64,000 bases of DNA from an uncultured Verrucomicrobiae bacterium (GTDB taxonomy: Bacteria > Chlamydiota > Chlamydiia > Chlamydiales > Rhabdochlamydiaceae). Below the pieces are notes generated by a model. That model had not been told where the DNA came from. It did not search any database and saw only the letters and a list, made by a program, of their open reading frames with translations. Positions 4,181-19,297 of this stretch are shown piece by piece. Made by a program: the position numbers and the translations under genes. Numbering within the stretch: position 1 is the first letter of the stretch; each line of letters begins with the position of its first letter. The stretch lies in contig CAWEXY010000022.1 in the NCBI GenBank assembly GCA_963813135.1, positions 1 to 64,000 of the forward strand, given 5' to 3'.

Positions 4181-4512
4181 TTTTCCTGTAAATGCAGAAC
4201 ACCTGCAAGGTCGGGGAAGCATTATGCAACTTTTCGAATGCCTCCAAAGTATCTCTATTCCTCTCTACGTCTTGTTTAGAGCTACTATCCCATGAGTTGA
4301 TTTCTTCTGAAAAACATGCATTACAGCGACAACCTCGACACAGAAGGCATTGCTAATAATTCAGGCGATTCGTTAAGGTTTTCCTTTAGATGAACCATCA
4401 GAAACGCTTCTCTTAACTCAAGGGACGCTTCTGAGAGAGATGAACAACTCTGTGGAGCAAACAGATGTTATTCAAAACCTTGTCCGACCTACGGGTTCTT
4501 TATGGGAGCGCT

Positions 4513-5958
4513 ATGAAAAATGCCACTGTCTTCAAAGTTTTTTGTTTTTGGGCCGTATGCTGTGCCTTTTTCTCTAAATTGCATAGCGCTCCGCCACCTC
4601 CGCCGACACCCCCGCCTCAATACGTCCCTTTTTCATTCGGGAACGTGAACAATACGATGAGCGGGCCGTTCGTATATAGCAATCTATACATCGTCGTCAA
4701 AGGGACGGATCCTGCTACCGGCAATGCTTGTTTTGTGAAGTTTAACGTGGCGACGGGGGTTGGCACTTGCCATGACCCTATATCTTCGACTGATAATGGC
4801 TATACCTATGCCCTGTCGAGTTTTCCAGTCGATGGTGACAACGTGCCCTATGTGTATATGCCATGCATCATTAGCGCCAGGCTCTACATGTCCATTGGGA
4901 GTGGCACATTTACTGGGTTGACGCTTCCAGTACAGGGCGCTTCAGCACCCTACACAATTGGCGACCCTATCCCAACAGATCCCATGGATACCGCTTATAA
5001 TTATCTGTACGACAAAGTGGAATTTAATATTAAACCGGATGAGTGTGTGATCAATCCGACCCTTGTCGACTATTTCTGCTTTCCACTCCCCATCACCGTT
5101 ACTGCAAATGGAGGGTGCAGTCAGCTGTATGCTGGAATGCCCCCCACTCAAAACAGGGAGCAGATTTTTAGTAATACGGAGCATACTGGGTATGCTGATA
5201 TCGTCAATAGCATTACAAATACGGCATCACAAGCCCAGTGGTCGGGGCTTCTCCTCAAACATGGGTCGAAAAATTTGCGCATTCTCTCTACAAATACAGC
5301 CTTGGGCTCAGCCCCCGTTTTGTTTGATACCAGCTATTTGTTATCTACGGCCTATTACAATAAAGGCAACGATACATGGCTTTCAAAGTTTTGGTTTAGT
5401 CAATCGGCGCACAACTCTTATTATACAACGAATACGATTTGGATGGACCTCTCACAGCTTCCCGGATACGGCCTTTATAGCGGGCAGGTAAATCCTACTA
5501 CGGGCGCATTCAACTTCACTAAACAAACTGGAACAAAGGGAGCGAGTGTATCCATCACGCTACCCACTAGCACTGTCCCTTTCTTTGCAGGAACTGGTTT
5601 TGTATCTTCAGGAGATGCAGCGGCGGCGACAATTATCGAGAAGTTTTTATCTGCAGGTGTTGTATCTGGAGTTCTCCCCACCGCAAGTTCTAAGACAAAT
5701 CCTATCAACAATTCCTTCTTCCAAGCCTTCAAGTCGTCATATTATCAAAACAATTCCTATTTCGCTGCAGGGTCAGGTCCTTGGTATGATCTCTATTCAA
5801 AGGTGCTACACTCGTTTGCTGTCTATCCCTATAACTTTTACACCTATGCTTATGACGATGTGCTCGGAAATGATAATACGATCACTTCTGAAAACATTTT
5901 AACAAACAACGTAACTGTTACGATCACGCTGGGTGATATGACAGGAACCACCCCATGA
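4513..5958 (+). CDS. Secreted GH64-family beta-1,3-glucanase
   Basis: Signal peptide and Pro-rich linker; SARLYMSIG, YDKVEFN...INPTLVDYF (catalytic Glu/Asp positions), YSKVLH...YAYDDV. The ORF track starts at 4465; ATG 4513 fits the signal peptide better. Confidence 0.8.
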   Translation: MKNATVFKVFCFWAVCCAFFSKLHSAPPPPPTPPPQYVPFSFGNVNNTMSGPFVYSNLYIVVKGTDPATGNACFVKFNVATGVGTCHDPISSTDNGYTYALSSFPVDGDNVPYVYMPCIISARLYMSIGSGTFTGLTLPVQGASAPYTIGDPIPTDPMDTAYNYLYDKVEFNIKPDECVINPTLVDYFCFPLPITVTANGGCSQLYAGMPPTQNREQIFSNTEHTGYADIVNSITNTASQAQWSGLLLKHGSKNLRILSTNTALGSAPVLFDTSYLLSTAYYNKGNDTWLSKFWFSQSAHNSYYTTNTIWMDLSQLPGYGLYSGQVNPTTGAFNFTKQTGTKGASVSITLPTSTVPFFAGTGFVSSGDAAAATIIEKFLSAGVVSGVLPTASSKTNPINNSFFQAFKSSYYQNNSYFAAGSGPWYDLYSKVLHSFAVYPYNFYTYAYDDVLGNDNTITSENILTNNVTVTITLGDMTGTTP

Positions 5959-7748
5959 GGTATTCTATGTTCAAGAGATTGACACTGCTGCTGGCCCTTT
6001 GCGGATTCTTCTCCCTCCACGCCAGCGGATGCAATCCTTATACGCTTCCCAGTTACGAATCGGGATACGTCCCTTTCACAATCGTAAACAACGCTGGCGG
6101 CTCTGTTACATCCAGCGATCTTTACATCACAATCACAGGGACGGATCCGGCGACCAATAGCAGCTGCATCGTGCAACTGGCTCCAGGCATGGGCGGGCAA
6201 TGGTATGGATCTTTGGTCGATGCTACTCAATTTTTATTTGCAAACTCCAACCCCAATAACCTTACTCCCTATAGCTACCAGGTTTCCCAGTTTCCAACGC
6301 AAAATAGTCAACCCGTGATTTATCTACCCCCCATTACAAATGCGACCATGTACATTTCTATCGGATATGGGATGGGTTTGAACGTTACGCCAGGCGGTAC
6401 AATAAGCATTCAACCGCCTCAGCTCTTCACCCCATCAGATGGAAACTATTACCATCTGTATGATAATTCTACTTTTTTCTCGATTGGGACCGAGCTTGAA
6501 GTCCAGTCCCAATACCTAAACGGTTTTGGGCTGCCGATATCCATCATCGTCTCAACGAACCCAGGCGCAAATAGCAACATCCAATACTCGGGGACGACAC
6601 TAAACGGAGGCCACAGAACGGACCTCTTCACGAATTATAATACTGCCCTTGGAAACATCACAGATCTGAATGCAAAAGCTCAGTGGGCAAAATTACCATT
6701 GTCCTTTACTTCCGCAAGCGGAGGCGGGGTCACGCAATTGAGACTTGCGTCCGCTCTTTCTGCAATGAATTTTGCCACTTCGCCATTTGATCCTATGTAT
6801 CTTTTAAACTCTAGCCAATACCAAGACAATTGGATACAACAAGTATTTGGTACAACCACCCTTCCTTTTCCCATATATATTGATGTGTCAGCTCTAGGAA
6901 CTGGATACAATTATTATTCCTGCACAAGTGTTTCAGGTGGAAATCTCATCTTCACGCCAGGAACAGGCTCAACTGGAAAAACCGTGACCATCCCCTATCC
7001 ATTCACCACATCTTTACCCTTCCTCAATGCAGCTGGATCGGGAACAGGTAGTTTTAATGTTGCAGCAGGCAGTGATAGTCTAGCCGGCCCTCTTATCTGC
7101 TCCTATTTATCTGCAGGGTTTGTCACAGGTCTTTTCCCTGTGACAGCCAGCAGCCCAAGCGGCGGTCCATTAAGCGCAACGAATTTATTCGGCAGCGACT
7201 ACCTCGCCTATGCGAATGCCGGCGGTTACTTTTATCAAGGAAACCCCTATTTCACTGATGGATCAGGTCCTTGGTATGACCTATATGGCGCCGTCCTCCA
7301 TGCTGCATCTCCTTTCCCCTATTTCAATTTGCAGGCCGAGGCAGTAGATGCGTCTCTGGGGTATTTTTCACCCATCATGGCTAGCAACAATGGCAATACG
7401 CAGCCAGCGGTCTTTGTGGTTTTGAACCCGCTTGGCACGACAGTCGTACCCAATTTTACAGACTCGACTCAATACACGATTACTATCGCTCCGACTCCCG
7501 GCGCAGTGTCTTATACCGTGAATGGAAGCACCTCTTATACGAGTGGAATGCAATTTTCTGGTGCTGTTCCGTTTACTCTTACGATTACTTACCAATCAGG
7601 TATCTATAACGGCAAAACATTCACCTCGCAAATTTGGGTGAATGACACGAATGCCTATTCCATTGTTTTTCCTCAGCCTCCAGCAACGCTCGGTGTTACT
7701 AACACGGCCCTACATAACTGGAATATTGGGGTGGGAGCTTCTCCCTAA
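5955..7748 (+). CDS. Secreted GH64-like paralog with C-terminal extension; catalytic residues substituted
   Basis: ATGA overlap with the upstream gene; shares GTDPAT, MYISIG and GSGPWYDLY; Glu/Asp positions read STF and YLNGF. Confidence 0.75.
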   Translation: MRYSMFKRLTLLLALCGFFSLHASGCNPYTLPSYESGYVPFTIVNNAGGSVTSSDLYITITGTDPATNSSCIVQLAPGMGGQWYGSLVDATQFLFANSNPNNLTPYSYQVSQFPTQNSQPVIYLPPITNATMYISIGYGMGLNVTPGGTISIQPPQLFTPSDGNYYHLYDNSTFFSIGTELEVQSQYLNGFGLPISIIVSTNPGANSNIQYSGTTLNGGHRTDLFTNYNTALGNITDLNAKAQWAKLPLSFTSASGGGVTQLRLASALSAMNFATSPFDPMYLLNSSQYQDNWIQQVFGTTTLPFPIYIDVSALGTGYNYYSCTSVSGGNLIFTPGTGSTGKTVTIPYPFTTSLPFLNAAGSGTGSFNVAAGSDSLAGPLICSYLSAGFVTGLFPVTASSPSGGPLSATNLFGSDYLAYANAGGYFYQGNPYFTDGSGPWYDLYGAVLHAASPFPYFNLQAEAVDASLGYFSPIMASNNGNTQPAVFVVLNPLGTTVVPNFTDSTQYTITIAPTPGAVSYTVNGSTSYTSGMQFSGAVPFTLTITYQSGIYNGKTFTSQIWVNDTNAYSIVFPQPPATLGVTNTALHNWNIGVGASP

Positions 7749-11402: not shown

Positions 11403-12886
11403 CTAGAGCTGATTTTTAAGCCATTCAAATAGTTTGACCATGAGCAGAGTGTCCTGACAGCAATATTTCAACATTTGTTGCTCAAGGATGCCTTTGCCTT
11501 CTTTGGGAATTTTTTCGTCAATAAGACGTTCATAAGCGACCATAGCTTCAGTGCCATCCTTGATGGCTAGATTCTCGTAACTTGCTTCTTGTCCGAGCAG
11601 AGCTGGAGCGACTGACTTAATGCTGAAGCTCCCCTTGAAATTAATATCGTAAACCGTCTCCTTAACCACTTCCCAAAGATCTTCAAGCCTCTCTTTGATC
11701 TGTAATAACTCAGTAGAGTATTGAGGAAAGTCCCTTGCGAGATCTTTTAATATTTTAGATTCATATGTCTTGGAATAAACAATAATAGTCCCCCTGTTCT
11801 GGAACGGATGCGAGCAACTTTAGTATAAATTCTTCTCTGGGGTCTGAGAGAATTGTTGTGTAAATATTCATGATGATTTAGGGCAATCCCCGTTATCGAT
11901 ATGACAGCTGAATTGAAAAGGGATATGCTGATATGGCCTAGTATTATTGAATTTTGGGATTGCATAATCGATCGCTTCGAAATCCAAAAAGATTAAGGGG
12001 TATTGCCACCCCTGCAAGAGCTCTTCAATTGTTCTCCTATCCACAAATCGTTTTCCAGTTTGGGATACTTCTATCATTCTTTTTTGAAGAATCGGCTTAA
12101 AGTCAGCCTCGTTCAACCGAATGGATGTCGAGCTGGCCCCTTTCATAGAGCTCCCATTTTTTACGACAGTTTGGAATATTAAAAATGCTGAGCTCAGGAA
12201 CATGCGCCCAACACAGGCTCTTAAAAGGGCATTCATGTGGTTTATCGCATTTTTTGCTAATGCTTACTTCTGGTGGTGTATCATTTTTAAGCAATTTGAA
12301 AAGATGAGGCAAGCGTTCAGGCATCGAAGAGACTGTATCGGCGATTCGATCTGTAAAATCTTCTAATGAAAAAAGATTTCCCCCATCAGGGTAGATATAG
12401 TCTCTATTGAGATGCATCAAATATGCTTTGTTGATTGGGAATCCCAGATTTTTTAAGACCCACATTTGGATGGAAATGTCTAAGATATAGTCTTCAACAT
12501 CATCCTTATCAGGCTCATTGTAGGTCGTTGCCTTTACTTCTATCAAATCCCATGTTCCATCATCATTTTTTTTGAGGATATCAACCCTACATAATAGGCC
12601 TTCAAACTCAAAAGCTGGTTCAAATAATGTTTTTTCTCCATTTTGAAGTAGAGCATTTGTTCTAGCTAAAGCTACAGGTTTGGAGAGTTCATGCAATCAG
12701 AATTCCATCAGGGAACAGCTTTCTTGCGGTCTCTCCTACGATCTTTCCATGTTGGAGTAATCTCTGATCGAACCGACTAAGTGGAGCCGCTATATGAGGA
12801 TTAAAAATTTGGAAATAAAGGGCTTTGGAACAATTAAGTCCCATTTTAGCCTTTGATTTCGATAAAACCGCCGTACACTCGTTCAT
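11403..12886 (-). CDS. DUF2779-domain protein (Cas4-like PD-(D/E)xK nuclease plus RNase H-like exonuclease), frameshifted
   Basis: LSKSK...C, FEPAF..CRVDIL..WDLIEVK, CDKPHECPFKSLCW, FLDFE...PYQHIPFQFS, GSFSIKSVAPAL and YCCQDT across four fragments. Confidence 0.8.
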
Positions 12887-12974
12887 AAATAATTTAAAAT
12901 AAATTTTCAGATTTTAATTAAGTTAGAAGCAATTATAATAAAATTAGATCATGAAAACTATTAAATAAATCATT

Positions 12975-14645
12975 ATGGGAAAAGACACTCAAAAATCATT
13001 CCTGGATAAATGGATCAGTTTGACTAAACCGGAATCAATTTTACACATCAAATCAGATGTCGACGAGGCTTTATTTAATTGTGCATCTGCAAAATGTATA
13101 TATGCTAACAAAGACGCATTACCATCAGAAAAATTTGATTTAATTATCTTTGATACGCCATATCTTGACTCATGGAATGATGAATCTTCAGGAATAACAA
13201 CACGAGATATATCGGGAGAAAAACTTGAAATTCGTATTCACTGGGAAAATCTATTAAATACGTTACATCTCCTTTCTCCAAATGGAAATTGTCTTTTCAT
13301 ATCAGATGAATCTGATTTCTTGTTCCAATCCGGGTTCGAGCGAGCATTAAATAATAACGGATTTTATACTAATGCGCTATTCAATACGGGCAGGTCAATG
13401 GACTTTTGGATAAATCATCCTCTAAAAAATGATGATTTCTCTTTTTATCCAACTATCGCACATATTACACAAAAACACGGGGATGAACTATACACCGACA
13501 TCTTAAAGAACCAAGAAATTGCAATCAGCTCGATTGATATGTATTTCAACGATAAAAATAGAAAAGATTTAACTCGTTATATTGACAGAAAATATTTCAG
13601 TGGATTTGGGCATATATCAGCCCTTCAAGAATTGGAATTGATAGAAGTTCCTTATAAACATGATTCTCACTTATCCCTTAAAGCCTTGTCCGATGCAATA
13701 AACGTAGTTTCTAATGAATCTCAAGATTGTCTTAATGATTATGAGAATTCATTATATGTCTCATCAAATTTTGTTGGAAATAGTTTAGTTAACACTAAAC
13801 CTCCTGACAATTATTACAAACCATGTATTCAATTCATTTTAAAAAAAGAAACAATCATAGATCAATTTGTTTTGGAGTTTTTTAATTCCGAATATGGAAA
13901 GTTAGTTCTCCAATCAGCGATGCCCAATTGGAAGCTACCTATAGAAAAAATACAGCACTCCTTTGAAAACATAATGATCCCCATACCACCACTGCAAGAC
14001 CAAAAATTTATCGTTTCAACAAGAAAACAACTCGATACTTTGGCCACTGAAATTAAGAATTTTAACTCCTTATTTTCTCTAAATCCGAATGAAGGAAAAA
14101 AATTTCACGATCAATTGAGTGATATGCTTCGAGTAATTGATAAATTAACTCAGCCAGATAAAGTCAGACAAATTATAAAAAAAGGCGAAACAAAAACATC
14201 CGAATTTAAACAAACTATGAGCCTTTGTATCAAAAAACGAACCAAGGAAGATTATATACAAGTCGCTGCGCTAAAAACAGTAGTGGCTTTTCTAAATACT
14301 GATGGTGGAGATTTGATAATCGGTGTAGATGACGACAAAAATATAATCGGGATTAATGTTGAAGTCGAATTGCTCTACAAAAACAGCGTTGATAAATATC
14401 TACTTCATTGGAAGAATTTAATAAAAGAAAATATAGGAGAAGAATTTTACCCATTTATAGACCCTAAAATCGTTGAAATTGAATCTAAGATTCTTTTACA
14501 TGTGGAATGTAAATCCTCTAAACGTCCCTGCTTTTTGAAAAAAAGCGAATTCTATGTTAGGACTAATCCGGCAACAGATAAATTAGAAGGCCAAACATTG
14601 ATCGATTACATCCAAAATCATACCAATTTCCAACAAAACAAGTGA
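12975..14645 (+). CDS. Degenerate N6-MTase/TRD-like N-terminus fused to a C-terminal Schlafen (AlbA_2) domain
   Basis: FDLIIFDTPY, LLSPNG, FFNSEYGK and IPIPPLQDQ (RM-type motifs); GETKTSEFK, VAFLNTDGGDLIIGVDD and FYVR (AlbA_2); visibly AT-rich. Confidence 0.75.
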   Translation: MGKDTQKSFLDKWISLTKPESILHIKSDVDEALFNCASAKCIYANKDALPSEKFDLIIFDTPYLDSWNDESSGITTRDISGEKLEIRIHWENLLNTLHLLSPNGNCLFISDESDFLFQSGFERALNNNGFYTNALFNTGRSMDFWINHPLKNDDFSFYPTIAHITQKHGDELYTDILKNQEIAISSIDMYFNDKNRKDLTRYIDRKYFSGFGHISALQELELIEVPYKHDSHLSLKALSDAINVVSNESQDCLNDYENSLYVSSNFVGNSLVNTKPPDNYYKPCIQFILKKETIIDQFVLEFFNSEYGKLVLQSAMPNWKLPIEKIQHSFENIMIPIPPLQDQKFIVSTRKQLDTLATEIKNFNSLFSLNPNEGKKFHDQLSDMLRVIDKLTQPDKVRQIIKKGETKTSEFKQTMSLCIKKRTKEDYIQVAALKTVVAFLNTDGGDLIIGVDDDKNIIGINVEVELLYKNSVDKYLLHWKNLIKENIGEEFYPFIDPKIVEIESKILLHVECKSSKRPCFLKKSEFYVRTNPATDKLEGQTLIDYIQNHTNFQQNK

Positions 14646-14826: not shown

Positions 14827-15192
14827 CTAATGCGGACCGGGCTTTTGTATAGTCGGTTGTTTCTGAGGAGAGATGCTAAGCCGGCTCTTTTCCCCAGTCA
14901 TACTATTGTAAAGAGAATTGATTGCTTGAATTTCAAGGTTGTAACCTTCAGTTTGTAAACGGGAAGGATCGTTCTTCGCAAAGTGCAAAACAAGATAGCA
15001 GTAAAAAATCAAAAGCCCAAGCATCACAACTGCACTAAATATTTGAACCCATAAGCTCGGTCCTTTCAAAACCCCATATCCAAATAAGGTTTGAATAAAT
15101 CCAAAAACCCAGTTCATGGATGCCATAACATTTTTCTTGTAGCCGGTACGAATACCCTTTTGTCCTGATACAAATGAAAACAAATTAGGCAT
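14827..15192 (-). CDS. Small 2-TM hypothetical protein
   Basis: Two hydrophobic segments followed by DPSRLQTE; overlaps the upstream gene. Confidence 0.65.
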   Translation of the reverse strand: MPNLFSFVSGQKGIRTGYKKNVMASMNWVFGFIQTLFGYGVLKGPSLWVQIFSAVVMLGLLIFYCYLVLHFAKNDPSRLQTEGYNLEIQAINSLYNSMTGEKSRLSISPQKQPTIQKPGPH

Positions 15193-15589
15193 CTTTTTGC
15201 CCTCTAAACACCGATATCGTCAAACAGAGCGAATCTTCTCCTGAAGAAGCTCCATAAATTTGCAAAAAGAATTTGTCTGCACCAATGCTAAATTCGAAAG
15301 GCTGTGAAAGTGAAGCACCTAGAGAGTTGAGGAAATTAGTTAGAATAAATGTTAAGGTATCCCCTTCTTGAAGAGTTTCAAGACCTTTTTTAGAATCATC
15401 TGGATCTGACTTGAATACGAAATTAAATTGAACAGATTTTTCAGGAGTCACAAGTATGTGCACCTGAACACCCTGCTTCGGATTACAACAGAGCGTTTCA
15501 GAAAGGATAACCTGTAAGCTGCCGTTAAATATTTTTGGTGTAATCCTATTCACACAAAGTACTTTACCAAAGCAAGTGCTAGGGATCAA
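15185..15589 (-). CDS. Hypothetical beta-rich protein (DUF6864-like); start uncertain
   Basis: FILTNFLNSLGAS..P pattern; translationally coupled to 14827-15192. Confidence 0.5.
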   Translation of the reverse strand: MIPSTCFGKVLCVNRITPKIFNGSLQVILSETLCCNPKQGVQVHILVTPEKSVQFNFVFKSDPDDSKKGLETLQEGDTLTFILTNFLNSLGASLSQPFEFSIGADKFFLQIYGASSGEDSLCLTISVFRGQKDA

Positions 15590-16365: not shown

Positions 16366-17721
16366 ATGGACGTCACATACTTCGGTTTTACTCTGACTCT
16401 GTTCCTGGTGTTCATCTTCTCAACGGTTATTTTTCTGGCGAAACTTTATCGCAGATGTCCATCGAATAAAATTCTGGTTGTTTATGGACGCGTGGGCGGC
16501 AGTAAAACGGTCCAATGCTACCACGGGGGCGGAACGTTTGTATGGCCCTTGATCCAAGGAAGCGCTTTTTTAGATCTGACCCCCAGAAATATCCACATTC
16601 CGTTGAAGGGAGCCCTTTCCCATCAGAACATCCGCGTGAACGTTCCCAGTACATTTACCGTGGCCATCGGGGTTACTCCCGATATCATGAACAACGCGGC
16701 GGTCCGTTTGCTGGACTTGGACCATAAGGGCATCGAGTCCATGGCAACGGAGATCATCGTGGGACAGCTCCGCCTGACGGTGGCTTCGCTGCGCATCGAA
16801 GAGATCAATCAAGACCGGGAGAGGTTCCTCGAATCTATTAAGAAAAATATTGAGCCGGAGCTGCATAAGATCGGCCTGACCCTTCTCAACGTGAACATCA
16901 CGGACATCACGGACGAATCTGAATACATCGAAAGCATTGGGAAGAAGGCCTCTGCGACAGCTGTAAACCAAGCCAAGGTGGATGTCGCCGAGCAAGAAAA
17001 GCAAGGGGATATCGGAAAAGCTTTAGCTGAGAAGGACCGCAGGGTGTCTGTCGCCTCTTTCAATGCGGAAGCTGTCAAGGGCGAGAACGATTCGAAGGCG
17101 CATATTGCTTTGACCAACGCAACGCTGGCCGAAAAAGAGGCCGACGCCTCTCGGCGCAGCCAAGTGGCCAAGCAACAGGCCGAGGCGGAAATTCAAAGGG
17201 CAAGAGCGCTGGCGCAAGCCCAACTTTTGGAAGCCGAGCAGATTGTCCCGCAAGAGATCAAAAAGAAAAAGATCCAACTCGAAGCCGAGGCCGAAGCTCA
17301 AAGCAAGGTCTTGATCGCCAAAGGCGAGGCCGAAGCCATCCTGGCTATCAAGAAAGCGGAAGCGGAAGGGATCCAAAAACTGCTCGATGCCAAAGCTAAG
17401 GGATATAAACAGCTGGTCGAGGCCTGCGGCGAGGACGCGAAGAGCGCATCGACGATGCTGCTTATCGAAAAACTCGAAGAGATCGTTAAATTGCAGACAG
17501 AGGCCATCAAGAATATTAAGATCGATAAGATCACTGTCTGGGACAGCGGCAATCAGGGCGATCCTGCCAAGGGATCTTCGACCTCTAACTTTATCAGCCA
17601 GTTTGCAAAATCGCTTCCTGCGCTGCACGATGTAGCGGCGATGGCCGGGCTGGAACTGCCGCAATATCTGGGGCAAATCAAGAAAGAAACCCTAGAGGAA
17701 GAAATCTCTAAGATAAAGTAA
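16366..17721 (+). CDS. Flotillin/SPFH-domain protein
   Basis: N-terminal TM; YRRCPSNKILVVYG, GGTFVWPLIQ; AEAEA-rich coiled coil. Confidence 0.93.
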   Translation: MDVTYFGFTLTLFLVFIFSTVIFLAKLYRRCPSNKILVVYGRVGGSKTVQCYHGGGTFVWPLIQGSAFLDLTPRNIHIPLKGALSHQNIRVNVPSTFTVAIGVTPDIMNNAAVRLLDLDHKGIESMATEIIVGQLRLTVASLRIEEINQDRERFLESIKKNIEPELHKIGLTLLNVNITDITDESEYIESIGKKASATAVNQAKVDVAEQEKQGDIGKALAEKDRRVSVASFNAEAVKGENDSKAHIALTNATLAEKEADASRRSQVAKQQAEAEIQRARALAQAQLLEAEQIVPQEIKKKKIQLEAEAEAQSKVLIAKGEAEAILAIKKAEAEGIQKLLDAKAKGYKQLVEACGEDAKSASTMLLIEKLEEIVKLQTEAIKNIKIDKITVWDSGNQGDPAKGSSTSNFISQFAKSLPALHDVAAMAGLELPQYLGQIKKETLEEEISKIK

Positions 17722-17763
17722 CCTCGCGCGCGATGCGGCAGCGCCATCAATTTGGTGGTCATC

Positions 17764-18240
17764 TCATTTGTGCAAAAGCCTGTCTACTTCTTCCCAAGGA
17801 AGTCTGCTTCCAGCCTTCTTCATCTTCTCGAAGGCTGAATGAGCTGTTGAGAGCTGAATGATCTTTTTTTCTAACATATCTTTTACAAGCCAGATCGTGC
17901 CATAGACTGGAACTTTTTCCAGGTCCGCAGCTTTTCGAAGGTGTTTATCCCCAGTTAAAAGAGGGCAGTTTTCATGGAAGGCAAGACTAAGAGCAAATAT
18001 ATCCATCCTGCTGGGACGGCGATACTTAGCTGAAAATTCTGTTGCAATATCGATTGCTTCTTTTGGAAGAGTTTTAACCTTCAATCCAAGGCCTAGAAGG
18101 TGCACATGCCTGGCCTTGAGTTCTCTTTCAAAAAGGACATCGGGTATCAAAAAAACTGTCTTCATGCTGAACATCGGGGCTAGCAAGACTCCATGTTCAA
18201 TATCAATCAGAACATTCGCATCGCTAACAATTATTTGCAT
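17764..18240 (-). CDS. PIN-domain protein (DUF3368-like)
   Basis: IVSDANVLID, LLTGDKHLRKAA and VYGTIWL. Confidence 0.85.
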   Translation of the reverse strand: MQIIVSDANVLIDIEHGVLLAPMFSMKTVFLIPDVLFERELKARHVHLLGLGLKVKTLPKEAIDIATEFSAKYRRPSRMDIFALSLAFHENCPLLTGDKHLRKAADLEKVPVYGTIWLVKDMLEKKIIQLSTAHSAFEKMKKAGSRLPWEEVDRLLHK

Positions 18241-19297
18241 GACGCTTATCGTCCATTAAGCGGAACTTTCTAAAAGTGTCAAGAGTATAGCCGAGTAATT
18301 CCGCTGCTTTTGATTCTCCAATATAGTCCTCGCCTAAGGCATGAAAAACCATCTGTTTGAAAATATGAGTTTTCTCGGAAGCGATCTGACAGCCGGGCTC
18401 CTGTTTCTTCCAACCCTTCTGGTTAAATTGAAAAATCAAGCTGTTAAAATAAGATTCTTTAATGATTTCTACTTCTCTTAATCGATAACAAATGGAGCAC
18501 ATGCTGAGTTTAAATTCTTCTTTAATTAAAAATAACTCTCTCCACTCTATGGAAGTTCTAATCTTGCCCATTTCTTGTATGATAGCTTCCTTGGGCAAAA
18601 GAAAAGCCCCCGCAAAACGATTGCATGCTTTTTCTTCATCGACACTTTTTGATATTAGACCCTGCAGAATAAAATGACCCAGCTCATGGGCTAAAGTAAA
18701 ACGTTGCCGATCTCCGGGCCATCTTGAACTGATCACAATGATGGGTTCATCATTTATCAGAGTAGCTAGACCATCGAACATTTTTTCCTCATAATCAATG
18801 ATAAATACTCGTACCCCATGGCTCTCAAACACATCTATGAGATCTTGAATAGGCGCCCTTCCCAATTTCCAATGGTTCCTAATTTTATTGGCAACTTCTT
18901 CAATTTGGTCATAGGATTCAATGCGGCTCGGCAATGAGTCGGGAATTTTAAATGACTGAATGGGAGGATGCGGATAGAGACCTTCTAACTCCAAGCGACG
19001 TTCAATCTGGTCCGCAATCTGAGCTTTAATGGATTCCTCAACTTTCTTTCCCAGCCGTTGCCTTTTTCGAAATTTGATTTCGCCAAGCTTAATAGTTTCA
19101 GGGCGAAAGAAAAACTCAACGGAAACCCCTAAAGCCTTGGATAGTTTAATCAGAATGTCCGAGGAAGGGGTCAACACCCCCTTTTCAAATTTACTTATCG
19201 CCATATGGCTCAAGCCCACAAGCTCTCCTAATTTGCGAAGCCCCAGTCCCGAAGCCCTTCTTGCCCTCTCAAGGCGCTTGCCTAAATTTATTGCCAT
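18224..19297 (-). CDS. XRE HTH plus ImmA/IrrE metallopeptidase
   Basis: N-terminal HTH (RLERARRASGL...ISKFEKG); RQRFTLAHELGH; EEKACNRFAGAFLLP. Confidence 0.92.
   Translation of the reverse strand: MAINLGKRLERARRASGLGLRKLGELVGLSHMAISKFEKGVLTPSSDILIKLSKALGVSVEFFFRPETIKLGEIKFRKRQRLGKKVEESIKAQIADQIERRLELEGLYPHPPIQSFKIPDSLPSRIESYDQIEEVANKIRNHWKLGRAPIQDLIDVFESHGVRVFIIDYEEKMFDGLATLINDEPIIVISSRWPGDRQRFTLAHELGHFILQGLISKSVDEEKACNRFAGAFLLPKEAIIQEMGKIRTSIEWRELFLIKEEFKLSMCSICYRLREVEIIKESYFNSLIFQFNQKGWKKQEPGCQIASEKTHIFKQMVFHALGEDYIGESKAAELLGYTLDTFRKFRLMDDKRHANNC

Follow-up and report, generated by a model that had tools for sequence, protein, structure and literature searches.

What does a protein do that joins degenerate restriction–modification (R-M) parts to an intact nuclease domain? 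The question is raised by a 556-amino-acid open reading frame, free of internal stops, in the 64,000-nucleotide stretch analysed here (the window). The first-pass annotation had read it as a degenerate methyltransferase (MTase) and target-recognition domain (TRD) fused to a Schlafen nuclease, and Pfam, fold and alignment agree that a single chain combines an MTase fold that is dead, a TRD and a Schlafen domain that is intact. Every motif on which that reading was built could be located, namely DTPY at aa 60 (position 13152), FFNSEYG at aa 302 (13878), IPIPPLQDQ at aa 335 (13977), E405-x4-E410-x-K412 (14187) and NTDGGDLIIGVDD at aa 441 (14295). The features are collected in Table 1.

Table 1 Features of the fusion gene, with position in the window, strand and evidence
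Whole gene: pseudo-HsdM, TRD, helical hairpin and Schlafen/AlbA_2, 556 aa	12975..14645	+	ORF, Pfam, neighbour survey
Truncated type I HsdM-like MTase domain, probably dead, aa 1-205	12975..13589	+	fold and alignments
Degenerate motif IV DTPY	13152..13163	+	alignments, profile–profile match
Linker helix, aa 206-232	13590..13670	+	model, family conservation
Single trimmed HsdS-type target-recognition domain, aa 233-338	13671..13988	+	Pfam Methylase_S, profile, model
Long helix resembling the HsdS conserved region plus return helix, leading into the nuclease, aa 339-392	13989..14150	+	model, HsdS alignments
Putative Schlafen/AlbA_2 RNase domain, aa 393-550	14151..14624	+	Pfam, model
Catalytic E405-x4-E410-x-K412	14187..14210	+	invariant in 111/111 aligned members

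An assembly frameshift masking a normal N-terminus was considered and found no support: matches to the family profiles gain nothing from either of the remaining forward frames. Two short public contigs are identical to the window at 12973-13138 and 13475-13684; they come from one sample, possibly the source itself. A promoter scan stayed at chance level, no terminator was found, and no model for the whole protein exists in PADLOC or NCBIfam. The whole-protein AlphaFold model, built on a 111-row alignment, reached a pLDDT of 87.2 and was split by structural alignment into three parts (aa 1-220, 230-373 and 391-553). On the idea that two chains might pair like an M2S core, a homodimer of aa 52-550 was predicted; its score of 0.21 against a mark of 0.42 speaks neither for nor against such pairing.

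Folded alone (pLDDT 84.8), aa 1-232 returned type I HsdM catalytic domains as all nine best matches among 48,161 chains, headed by 2okc (Z 12.7, rmsd 3.7, 194 residues aligned over a 279-residue target range). The domain assignment suggested in the first-pass annotation, run with AlphaFold, Foldseek and profile–profile comparison, thus places an HsdM fold at the N-terminus and a TRD after it. In the profile–profile alignment (aa 52-180, Probab 72.5, E 3e-5), DTPY falls on the NPPF motif IV of HsdM; the match takes in HsdM from motif IV onward only. DTPY had been taken to replace DPPY or NPPY; it is indeed a degenerate motif IV, but the proper reference is the type I NPPF. Across the family the motif reads DLPL, DLPF, DFPL or similar, none of the 111 aligned members carries the canonical NPP(F/Y/W), and a motif-I-like pattern occurs in one member, as a loose match.

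The segment upstream is itself short. Motif IV is preceded by 59 residues here (family median 68; 80 or fewer in 98 of 111 members), while in nine intact HsdM domains motif I sits 76–87 residues upstream of motif IV, and alignment against intact relatives opens a gap of about 60 columns across motif I and the next elements. The region of motifs IV–VIII is retained in the dead domain and the SAM motif I (DPxxGxG) is missing; HsdM_N gave no Pfam match in the 556 residues, which leave no room for it. The SAM half is clearly shortened and devoid of its glycine loop, with the exact place of the deletion uncertain, so that the earlier remark on the lack of a clear SAM-binding FxGxG was right about the motif but too mild, the segment being curtailed and not merely blurred. 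The absence of canonical motif IV together with the shortened motif I segment indicates that the methylase is probably dead family-wide. "RM-like relics", as these parts had been called, acknowledges their R-M derivation and understates what appears to be a conserved trait of 111 members. Two findings had been named in advance as speaking against the fusion reading, a missing MTase/TRD fold and an active methylase: the folds are present, and an active methylase was ruled out by the motifs.

For the TRD, Pfam Methylase_S matched aa 247-362 (E 4.2e-5; score 24.3 bits, cut-off 22) in a trimmed form that covers Pfam positions 50-160 of 168, and the family profile matched EcoKI HsdS (E 5.9e-10). 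Residues 230-373 of the model superpose on the half-S-type protein 8vsr_B (Z 11.0, rmsd 3.5, 137 aligned), with the hairpin formed by helices 340-367 and 371-387. Type I HsdS proteins have two hypervariable TRDs joined by conserved helices; this family has one TRD, whose mean pairwise identity is 53%, against 17% between the halves of eight real HsdS proteins, a rough control that mixes families. TRD divergence also tracks nuclease divergence (r 0.67). A TRD so uniform, changing in step with the nuclease, is not a diversifying specificity domain.

The C-terminal part matched Pfam SLFN_AlbA_2 at aa 405-537 (E 2.9e-17). Its E/E/K triad is present in all 111 aligned members and conforms to the Ex4(E/D)xK pattern of pSlfn proteins, and aa 391-553 superpose on AlbA_2 domains, among them 9o0d, the tRNase domain of SAMD9 (Z 12.1, rmsd 3.3, 146 aligned). 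The prokaryotic Schlafens tested so far are reported to be trigger-dependent tRNases acting through the same motif (PMC13056530), and cleavage of tRNA through it is also described in PMC13462974. Two further AlbA_2 genes occur in the same genome (G000:C21 near 161500-161900 and G000:C9 near 17500-17800), both showing by eye the common Schlafen–ATPase-like–HTH layout. The Schlafen clade of this family is also found C-terminally on HsdR, type ISP and type IIG proteins (L060, L063, L068, L076, L079 and P0128-P0134) and fused to TPR proteins; Schlafen tails on R-M enzymes thus appear to be a recurring theme.

A search of proteins of 305-973 aa yielded 331 homologues, mostly of about 545 aa; among the 120 matches listed of these 331, most were 530-590 aa long, with 85–99% query cover and 31–45% identity. 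After exclusion of near-duplicates, fragments and long fusions, 111 of the 120 were aligned, and mean pairwise identity rose from 38% in the dead MTase through 53% in the TRD to 65% in the Schlafen domain. A sensor-only profile lacking the Schlafen domain matched 607 clusters at 50% identity (E up to 1e-30). Among the best 150 of these 607, 134 carried a Schlafen domain, 15 ended short and 1 had another tail, from which the coupling of sensor and nuclease appears near-obligate. Swapping of effectors on the sensor was considered and set aside, with one case in the best 150 of 607: P0175, the sole non-Schlafen tail among them, is helical, about 120 aa long and without a Pfam match. A search for longer proteins with the sensor, a weak test, returned at least one match. 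Atlas clusters of about 479 aa, without a common Pfam domain, scored 0.92.

Named carriers include cyanobacteria, Bacteroidota, Chloroflexota, several proteobacterial groups, a spirochaete, Patescibacteria-type lineages and archaea. The closest homologue among the matches listed comes from a Chlamydiae MAG, and 399 other scored genomes of the phylum gave no match at E 1e-20. There was no match in 50,697 phage records, and plasmid matches were confined to the intact form described below and to Schlafen-only proteins.

In the window the gene stands alone, with both neighbours on the opposite strand, and its GC content is 32% (GC3 28%) against 48% for the contig. Upstream and divergent from it, at 11403-about 12790 (−), lies a Cas4-like nuclease/DUF2779/exonuclease-like gene split over several frames; two short public contigs from one sample have one base fewer at 12112, so the interruption there, at least, may reflect faulty assembly instead of pseudogenization. 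Downstream, at 14827-15589 (−), are two small low-GC genes, one encoding a DUF6864 protein and the other a membrane-like protein of 121 aa with two helices and no family, neither of which was found beside family members at other loci. About 3 kb off, at 17764-19297 (−), an HTH plus IrrE/M78 peptidase gene (PADLOC RmrA-like, E 5e-58) overlaps a PIN/DUF3368 gene, the pair being likely a toxin–antitoxin or stress module. Farther away, at 4465-7748 (+), two tandem genes with signal-peptide-like starts match GH64 beta-1,3-glucanases. Using tblastn and Pfam, we found no hsdM, hsdS or hsdR in this genome (1.83 Mb, 82% complete), the lone exception being one weak N6_Mtase match at the cut-off. The closest relative likewise has no type I genes at its locus and no HsdM_N match in its genome.

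Elsewhere, a survey of homologue neighbourhoods of the kind proposed at the outset revealed a strong association of the family with type I R-M loci as well as other defence genes. An hsdM+hsdS pair lies at 9 of the 30 loci of at least 10 kb (22 genome, 8 metagenome), a set of loci that are not fully independent and that omits L009 as a duplicate, the intact fusions, loci with Schlafen alone and those metagenome loci (48 of 56) that are shorter than 10 kb; about 1% would be expected from the HsdM_N density in the same genomes. Counted over genome loci, the figure is 9 of 33. In seven loci (L021, L024, L025, L027, L029, L037 and L040, the last with hsdS and hsdR identified by eye under table 25), hsdM, hsdS or hsdR is directly adjacent on the same strand. 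Type I genes are absent from the other 21 of these 30 long loci, some of which adjoin Druantia III (L101), OLD (L018) or Mrr (L006), while shorter loci have Shedu, Mrr or type II R-M as neighbours, and GmrSD-HNH is also among the defence genes nearby. Genome-wide, HsdM_N occurs in 27 of 33 carriers and 8 of 14 controls (p 0.14), with no clear enrichment. Since fusions of this Schlafen clade extend to HsdR, type ISP, type IIG and TPR proteins, the linkage to R-M need not mean functional coupling and is partly a habit of the whole clade.

Longer relatives carry an intact HsdM, with motif I and NPPF and usually HsdM_N, on the same TRD–hairpin–Schlafen module (L002, L022, L023, L030, L057, L136, P0110, P0115, P0121-P0125 and P0277). 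When compared with 7 free HsdMs (4 of the 11 were dropped because the motif pattern missed them), the fused HsdM parts were rejected as one clade (AU p 1.2e-5), and the tree places the fused HsdM of L057 as sister to the free hsdM that follows it immediately (support 97/96). Fused parts of several lineages and this sister pair indicate that the module has exchanged its N-terminal part with real hsdM genes more than once, as expected if it keeps copying its current target. P0280 (717 aa, cluster of 19), in which HsdM_N is joined to the dead MTase domain and followed by TRD and Schlafen, is either an intermediate or a graft. On the tree of the module itself the intact forms appear dispersed, with 5 changes; repeated origin was nevertheless rejected as a conclusion from this tree, as the AU test keeps one clade (p 0.61). 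Because the constrained tree also scored higher, no direction of change is claimed. In L057 (6408-16061) and L139 (5945-16068), both from marine gammaproteobacteria, an intact HsdM–TRD–Schlafen fusion lies immediately before an hsdM–hsdS–hsdR operon; L139 is a plasmid with adjoining CBASS genes.

Taken together, the protein is very probably a regulated defence RNase in which a dead R-M module acts as sensor for an intact RNase effector. As to what is sensed, we lean tentatively towards a one-gene abortive-infection protein whose HsdM–TRD pseudo-enzyme serves as an integrated anti-restriction decoy. The C-terminal Schlafen domain would be a latent tRNA endonuclease, and the N-terminal 390 residues, derived from a type I HsdM–TRD fusion, would neither bind SAM nor methylate DNA but mimic the target of phage or plasmid anti-restriction factors. 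Binding of such a factor would be relayed by the hairpin to the nuclease, which would then fire, cut tRNA and stop translation. Latency, trigger, relay and any oligomer are what we infer here. An anti-restriction factor, our provisional prediction for the trigger, is favoured because HsdMS of the Ronin system is a methylase-independent decoy and because the module seems to keep exchanging parts with real HsdM.

The decoy reading gains from the patchy spread, the low GC, the lack of a match in the other 399 genomes of the phylum, the type I linkage at 9 of 30 loci, the HsdM fold and the near-obligate coupling of sensor and nuclease. Several observations weigh against it. The sensor of this copy is acidic, with net charges of −11 in the pseudo-MTase and −4 in the TRD against family medians of −5 and +1, and is a poor fit as partner for an acidic DNA mimic, although net charge is a crude measure and free HsdM domains are likewise acidic. 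No hsdM, hsdS or hsdR was found in this 82%-complete genome, HsdM_N is not clearly enriched among carriers, R-M operons serve generally as slots for Schlafen genes, and the module tree keeps a single origin of the intact fusions. Finally, HsdM_N and about 60–80 further residues are missing, which may limit the fidelity of any HsdM mimicry. The broadest version, a widespread bacterial and archaeal single-chain decoy that baits anti-restriction proteins with its pseudo-methylase and TRD, fires a Schlafen tRNase and renews its bait from host hsdM genes, is somewhat unlikely as a whole.

Other accounts of the same architecture were weighed against this. The dead MTase and TRD might have retained DNA binding, whether to a fixed site, to a modified base or to some unusual form of DNA made in infection, and thereby switch on the RNase, a reading we regard as unlikely: aa 1-340 superpose as one unit on the DNA-bound monomeric MTase M.TaqI (2ih5; Z 12.6, rmsd 5.6, 290 aligned), the conservation of the TRD (53% versus 17%) and its covariation with the nuclease suggest one fixed ligand, and nucleic acids activate SLFN11 and SAMD9 (PMC13056530). 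Yet the TRD is trimmed, near neutral in the family and acidic here, and a chain that has no methylase would encounter any plain-sequence trigger in the chromosome of its own host as well. Alternatively, the protein might use its HsdS-like helix to join the host's own type I complex as a pseudo-subunit and be released or activated when that complex is blocked. This would follow the precedent of PrrC and suit both the same-strand adjacency to hsdM, hsdS or hsdR in several loci and the HsdM_N matches in 27 of 33 carrier genomes. Such a guard is improbable given that 21 of 30 long loci lack type I genes, that those scoring at least 200 bits on the pseudo-MTase profile have them in 0 of 9 cases (a post hoc split, p 0.03), that the linked type I systems belong to different subfamilies, and that no partner was found in this genome.

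The R-M ancestry could also be purely historical, the sensor now detecting some unrelated protein of a phage, a role reported for the Ig-like domain of pSlfn5 (PMC13056530). Many copies stand alone, and variation is greatest in the dead domain (38% mean pairwise identity against 65% for Schlafen), as it is in the pSlfn5 sensor; but type I linkage persists, and the repeated exchange with HsdM, including the P0280 graft if it is one, suggests that likeness to R-M still matters, leaving this account quite improbable. It is very improbable that the family is functional while the sensor of this particular copy decays after transfer to a small-genome host, its nuclease silent. Conserved positions have been lost here in the pseudo-MTase (15 of 28 kept; mean of other members 25.9), the linker (4 of 11; minimum elsewhere 7) and the TRD (16 of 25; minimum elsewhere 18), some apparent losses near indels being possible alignment errors, and the end branch measures 0.87 against a median of 0.41. 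Set against this, the reading frame is unbroken, the nuclease retains the triad and 64 of 73 conserved positions, the model is confident (pLDDT 87), and an uncontrolled intact RNase should be toxic. The closest relative, moreover, keeps 14 of 28 pseudo-MTase positions, and such similar losses indicate divergence at the level of the lineage. The unusually diverged and acidic sensor of this copy may thus be either retargeted or decaying.

Some plant immune receptors carry integrated decoy domains, and an integrated anti-restriction decoy, if true, would be a prokaryotic parallel to these eukaryotic proteins; its hundreds of natural sensor variants could then serve as bait for unknown R-M inhibitors. 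Most prokaryotic Schlafen sensors have no known trigger, and the ancestry of this one supplies a short, testable list. One 1.7-kb gene suffices, with no partner required in most loci, and L057 and L139 offer good cloneable test loci. A positive result would join Schlafen tRNases with anti-anti-restriction defence (PrrC, PARIS and Ronin) and provide an example of a DNA methylase turned pseudo-enzyme; a negative one would still define the ligand of the dead HsdM–TRD unit.

Among known systems, the nearest is pSlfn22 (NADP_Rossmann.TRD.pSlfn) of Perez Taboada et al. (Nat Microbiol 2026, PMC13056530, Supplementary Table 2), whose order of a SAM-MTase-type Rossmann domain, TRD and Schlafen domain is that of the present protein. 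The group has 8 members and a defence score of 1; four entries, WP_013253010.1, WP_159342116.1, WP_186545318.1 and WP_286307534.1, are 541-543 aa long, one with Pfam TRD at 262-352 and Schlafen at 392-524, and two of these four adjoin type I R-M. Kinship was compared for one of the eight members: NZ_CP011038.1_56, an intact form of 783 aa lying before a type I operon, is matched over linker, TRD and Schlafen by family member P0012 (aa 209-535, E 1e-25). In contrast to the present family, pSlfn22 mixes several MTase–Schlafen layouts. The architectures tested in that paper are others, and its accessible parts contain no mention of a dead or truncated MTase and propose no trigger for pSlfn22. Direct fusions of Schlafen with R-M methyltransferases also appear, in one clause, in the Cash paper (Nat Commun 2026, PMC13462974), as its 'Cluster 3'; they resemble our protein in fusion type, with no experimental test of them in the accessible parts of that source. 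By structure, the best Foldseek match of the whole model is 7eew (E 7.7e-8, TM only 0.23), the natural HsdM–S fused methylase of Vibrio vulnificus YJ016 with Ocr, which is also matched by sequence profile (positions 59-182, E 1.3e-4). It too has an MTase followed by an S-type domain in one chain, but is by its title an intact cofactor-bound methylase, and it has no Schlafen domain.

The decoy logic itself is closest to Ronin (Silas et al., bioRxiv 10.1101/2023.04.06.535777), where type I HsdM/HsdS is described as a methylase-independent decoy for anti-restriction proteins that still senses when motif IV is mutated and, for the most part, in the absence of hsdR. Ronin is defined by cell death upon expression of Ocr, ArdA or Aop1 regardless of methylase activity. 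Its three genes encode a complete HsdM, a complete HsdS and a membrane toxin of 61 aa (RonA), whereas here a single gene, with no neighbouring hsdM, hsdS or small transmembrane toxin, unites sensor and effector in one chain with a truncated MTase, one TRD and a putative RNase effector. PrrC–EcoprrI likewise ties a latent tRNase to type I R-M with an R-M inhibitor as trigger; however, PrrC combines an ABC-type NTPase with an unrelated anticodon nuclease and is silenced by the active R-M system to which it is constantly linked, while all 556 residues here are accounted for by other folds, none an NTPase, and most family loci have no linked R-M. A literature search of titles and abstract openings, mostly outside subscription papers, returned no description or test of a dead HsdM–TRD–Schlafen family. 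The layout is therefore already catalogued, as pSlfn22, and the decoy logic has precedents in Ronin and PrrC; relative to the literature examined, what is new is the methylase that appears dead and truncated throughout the family, the fixed TRD and the apparent exchange with host hsdM.
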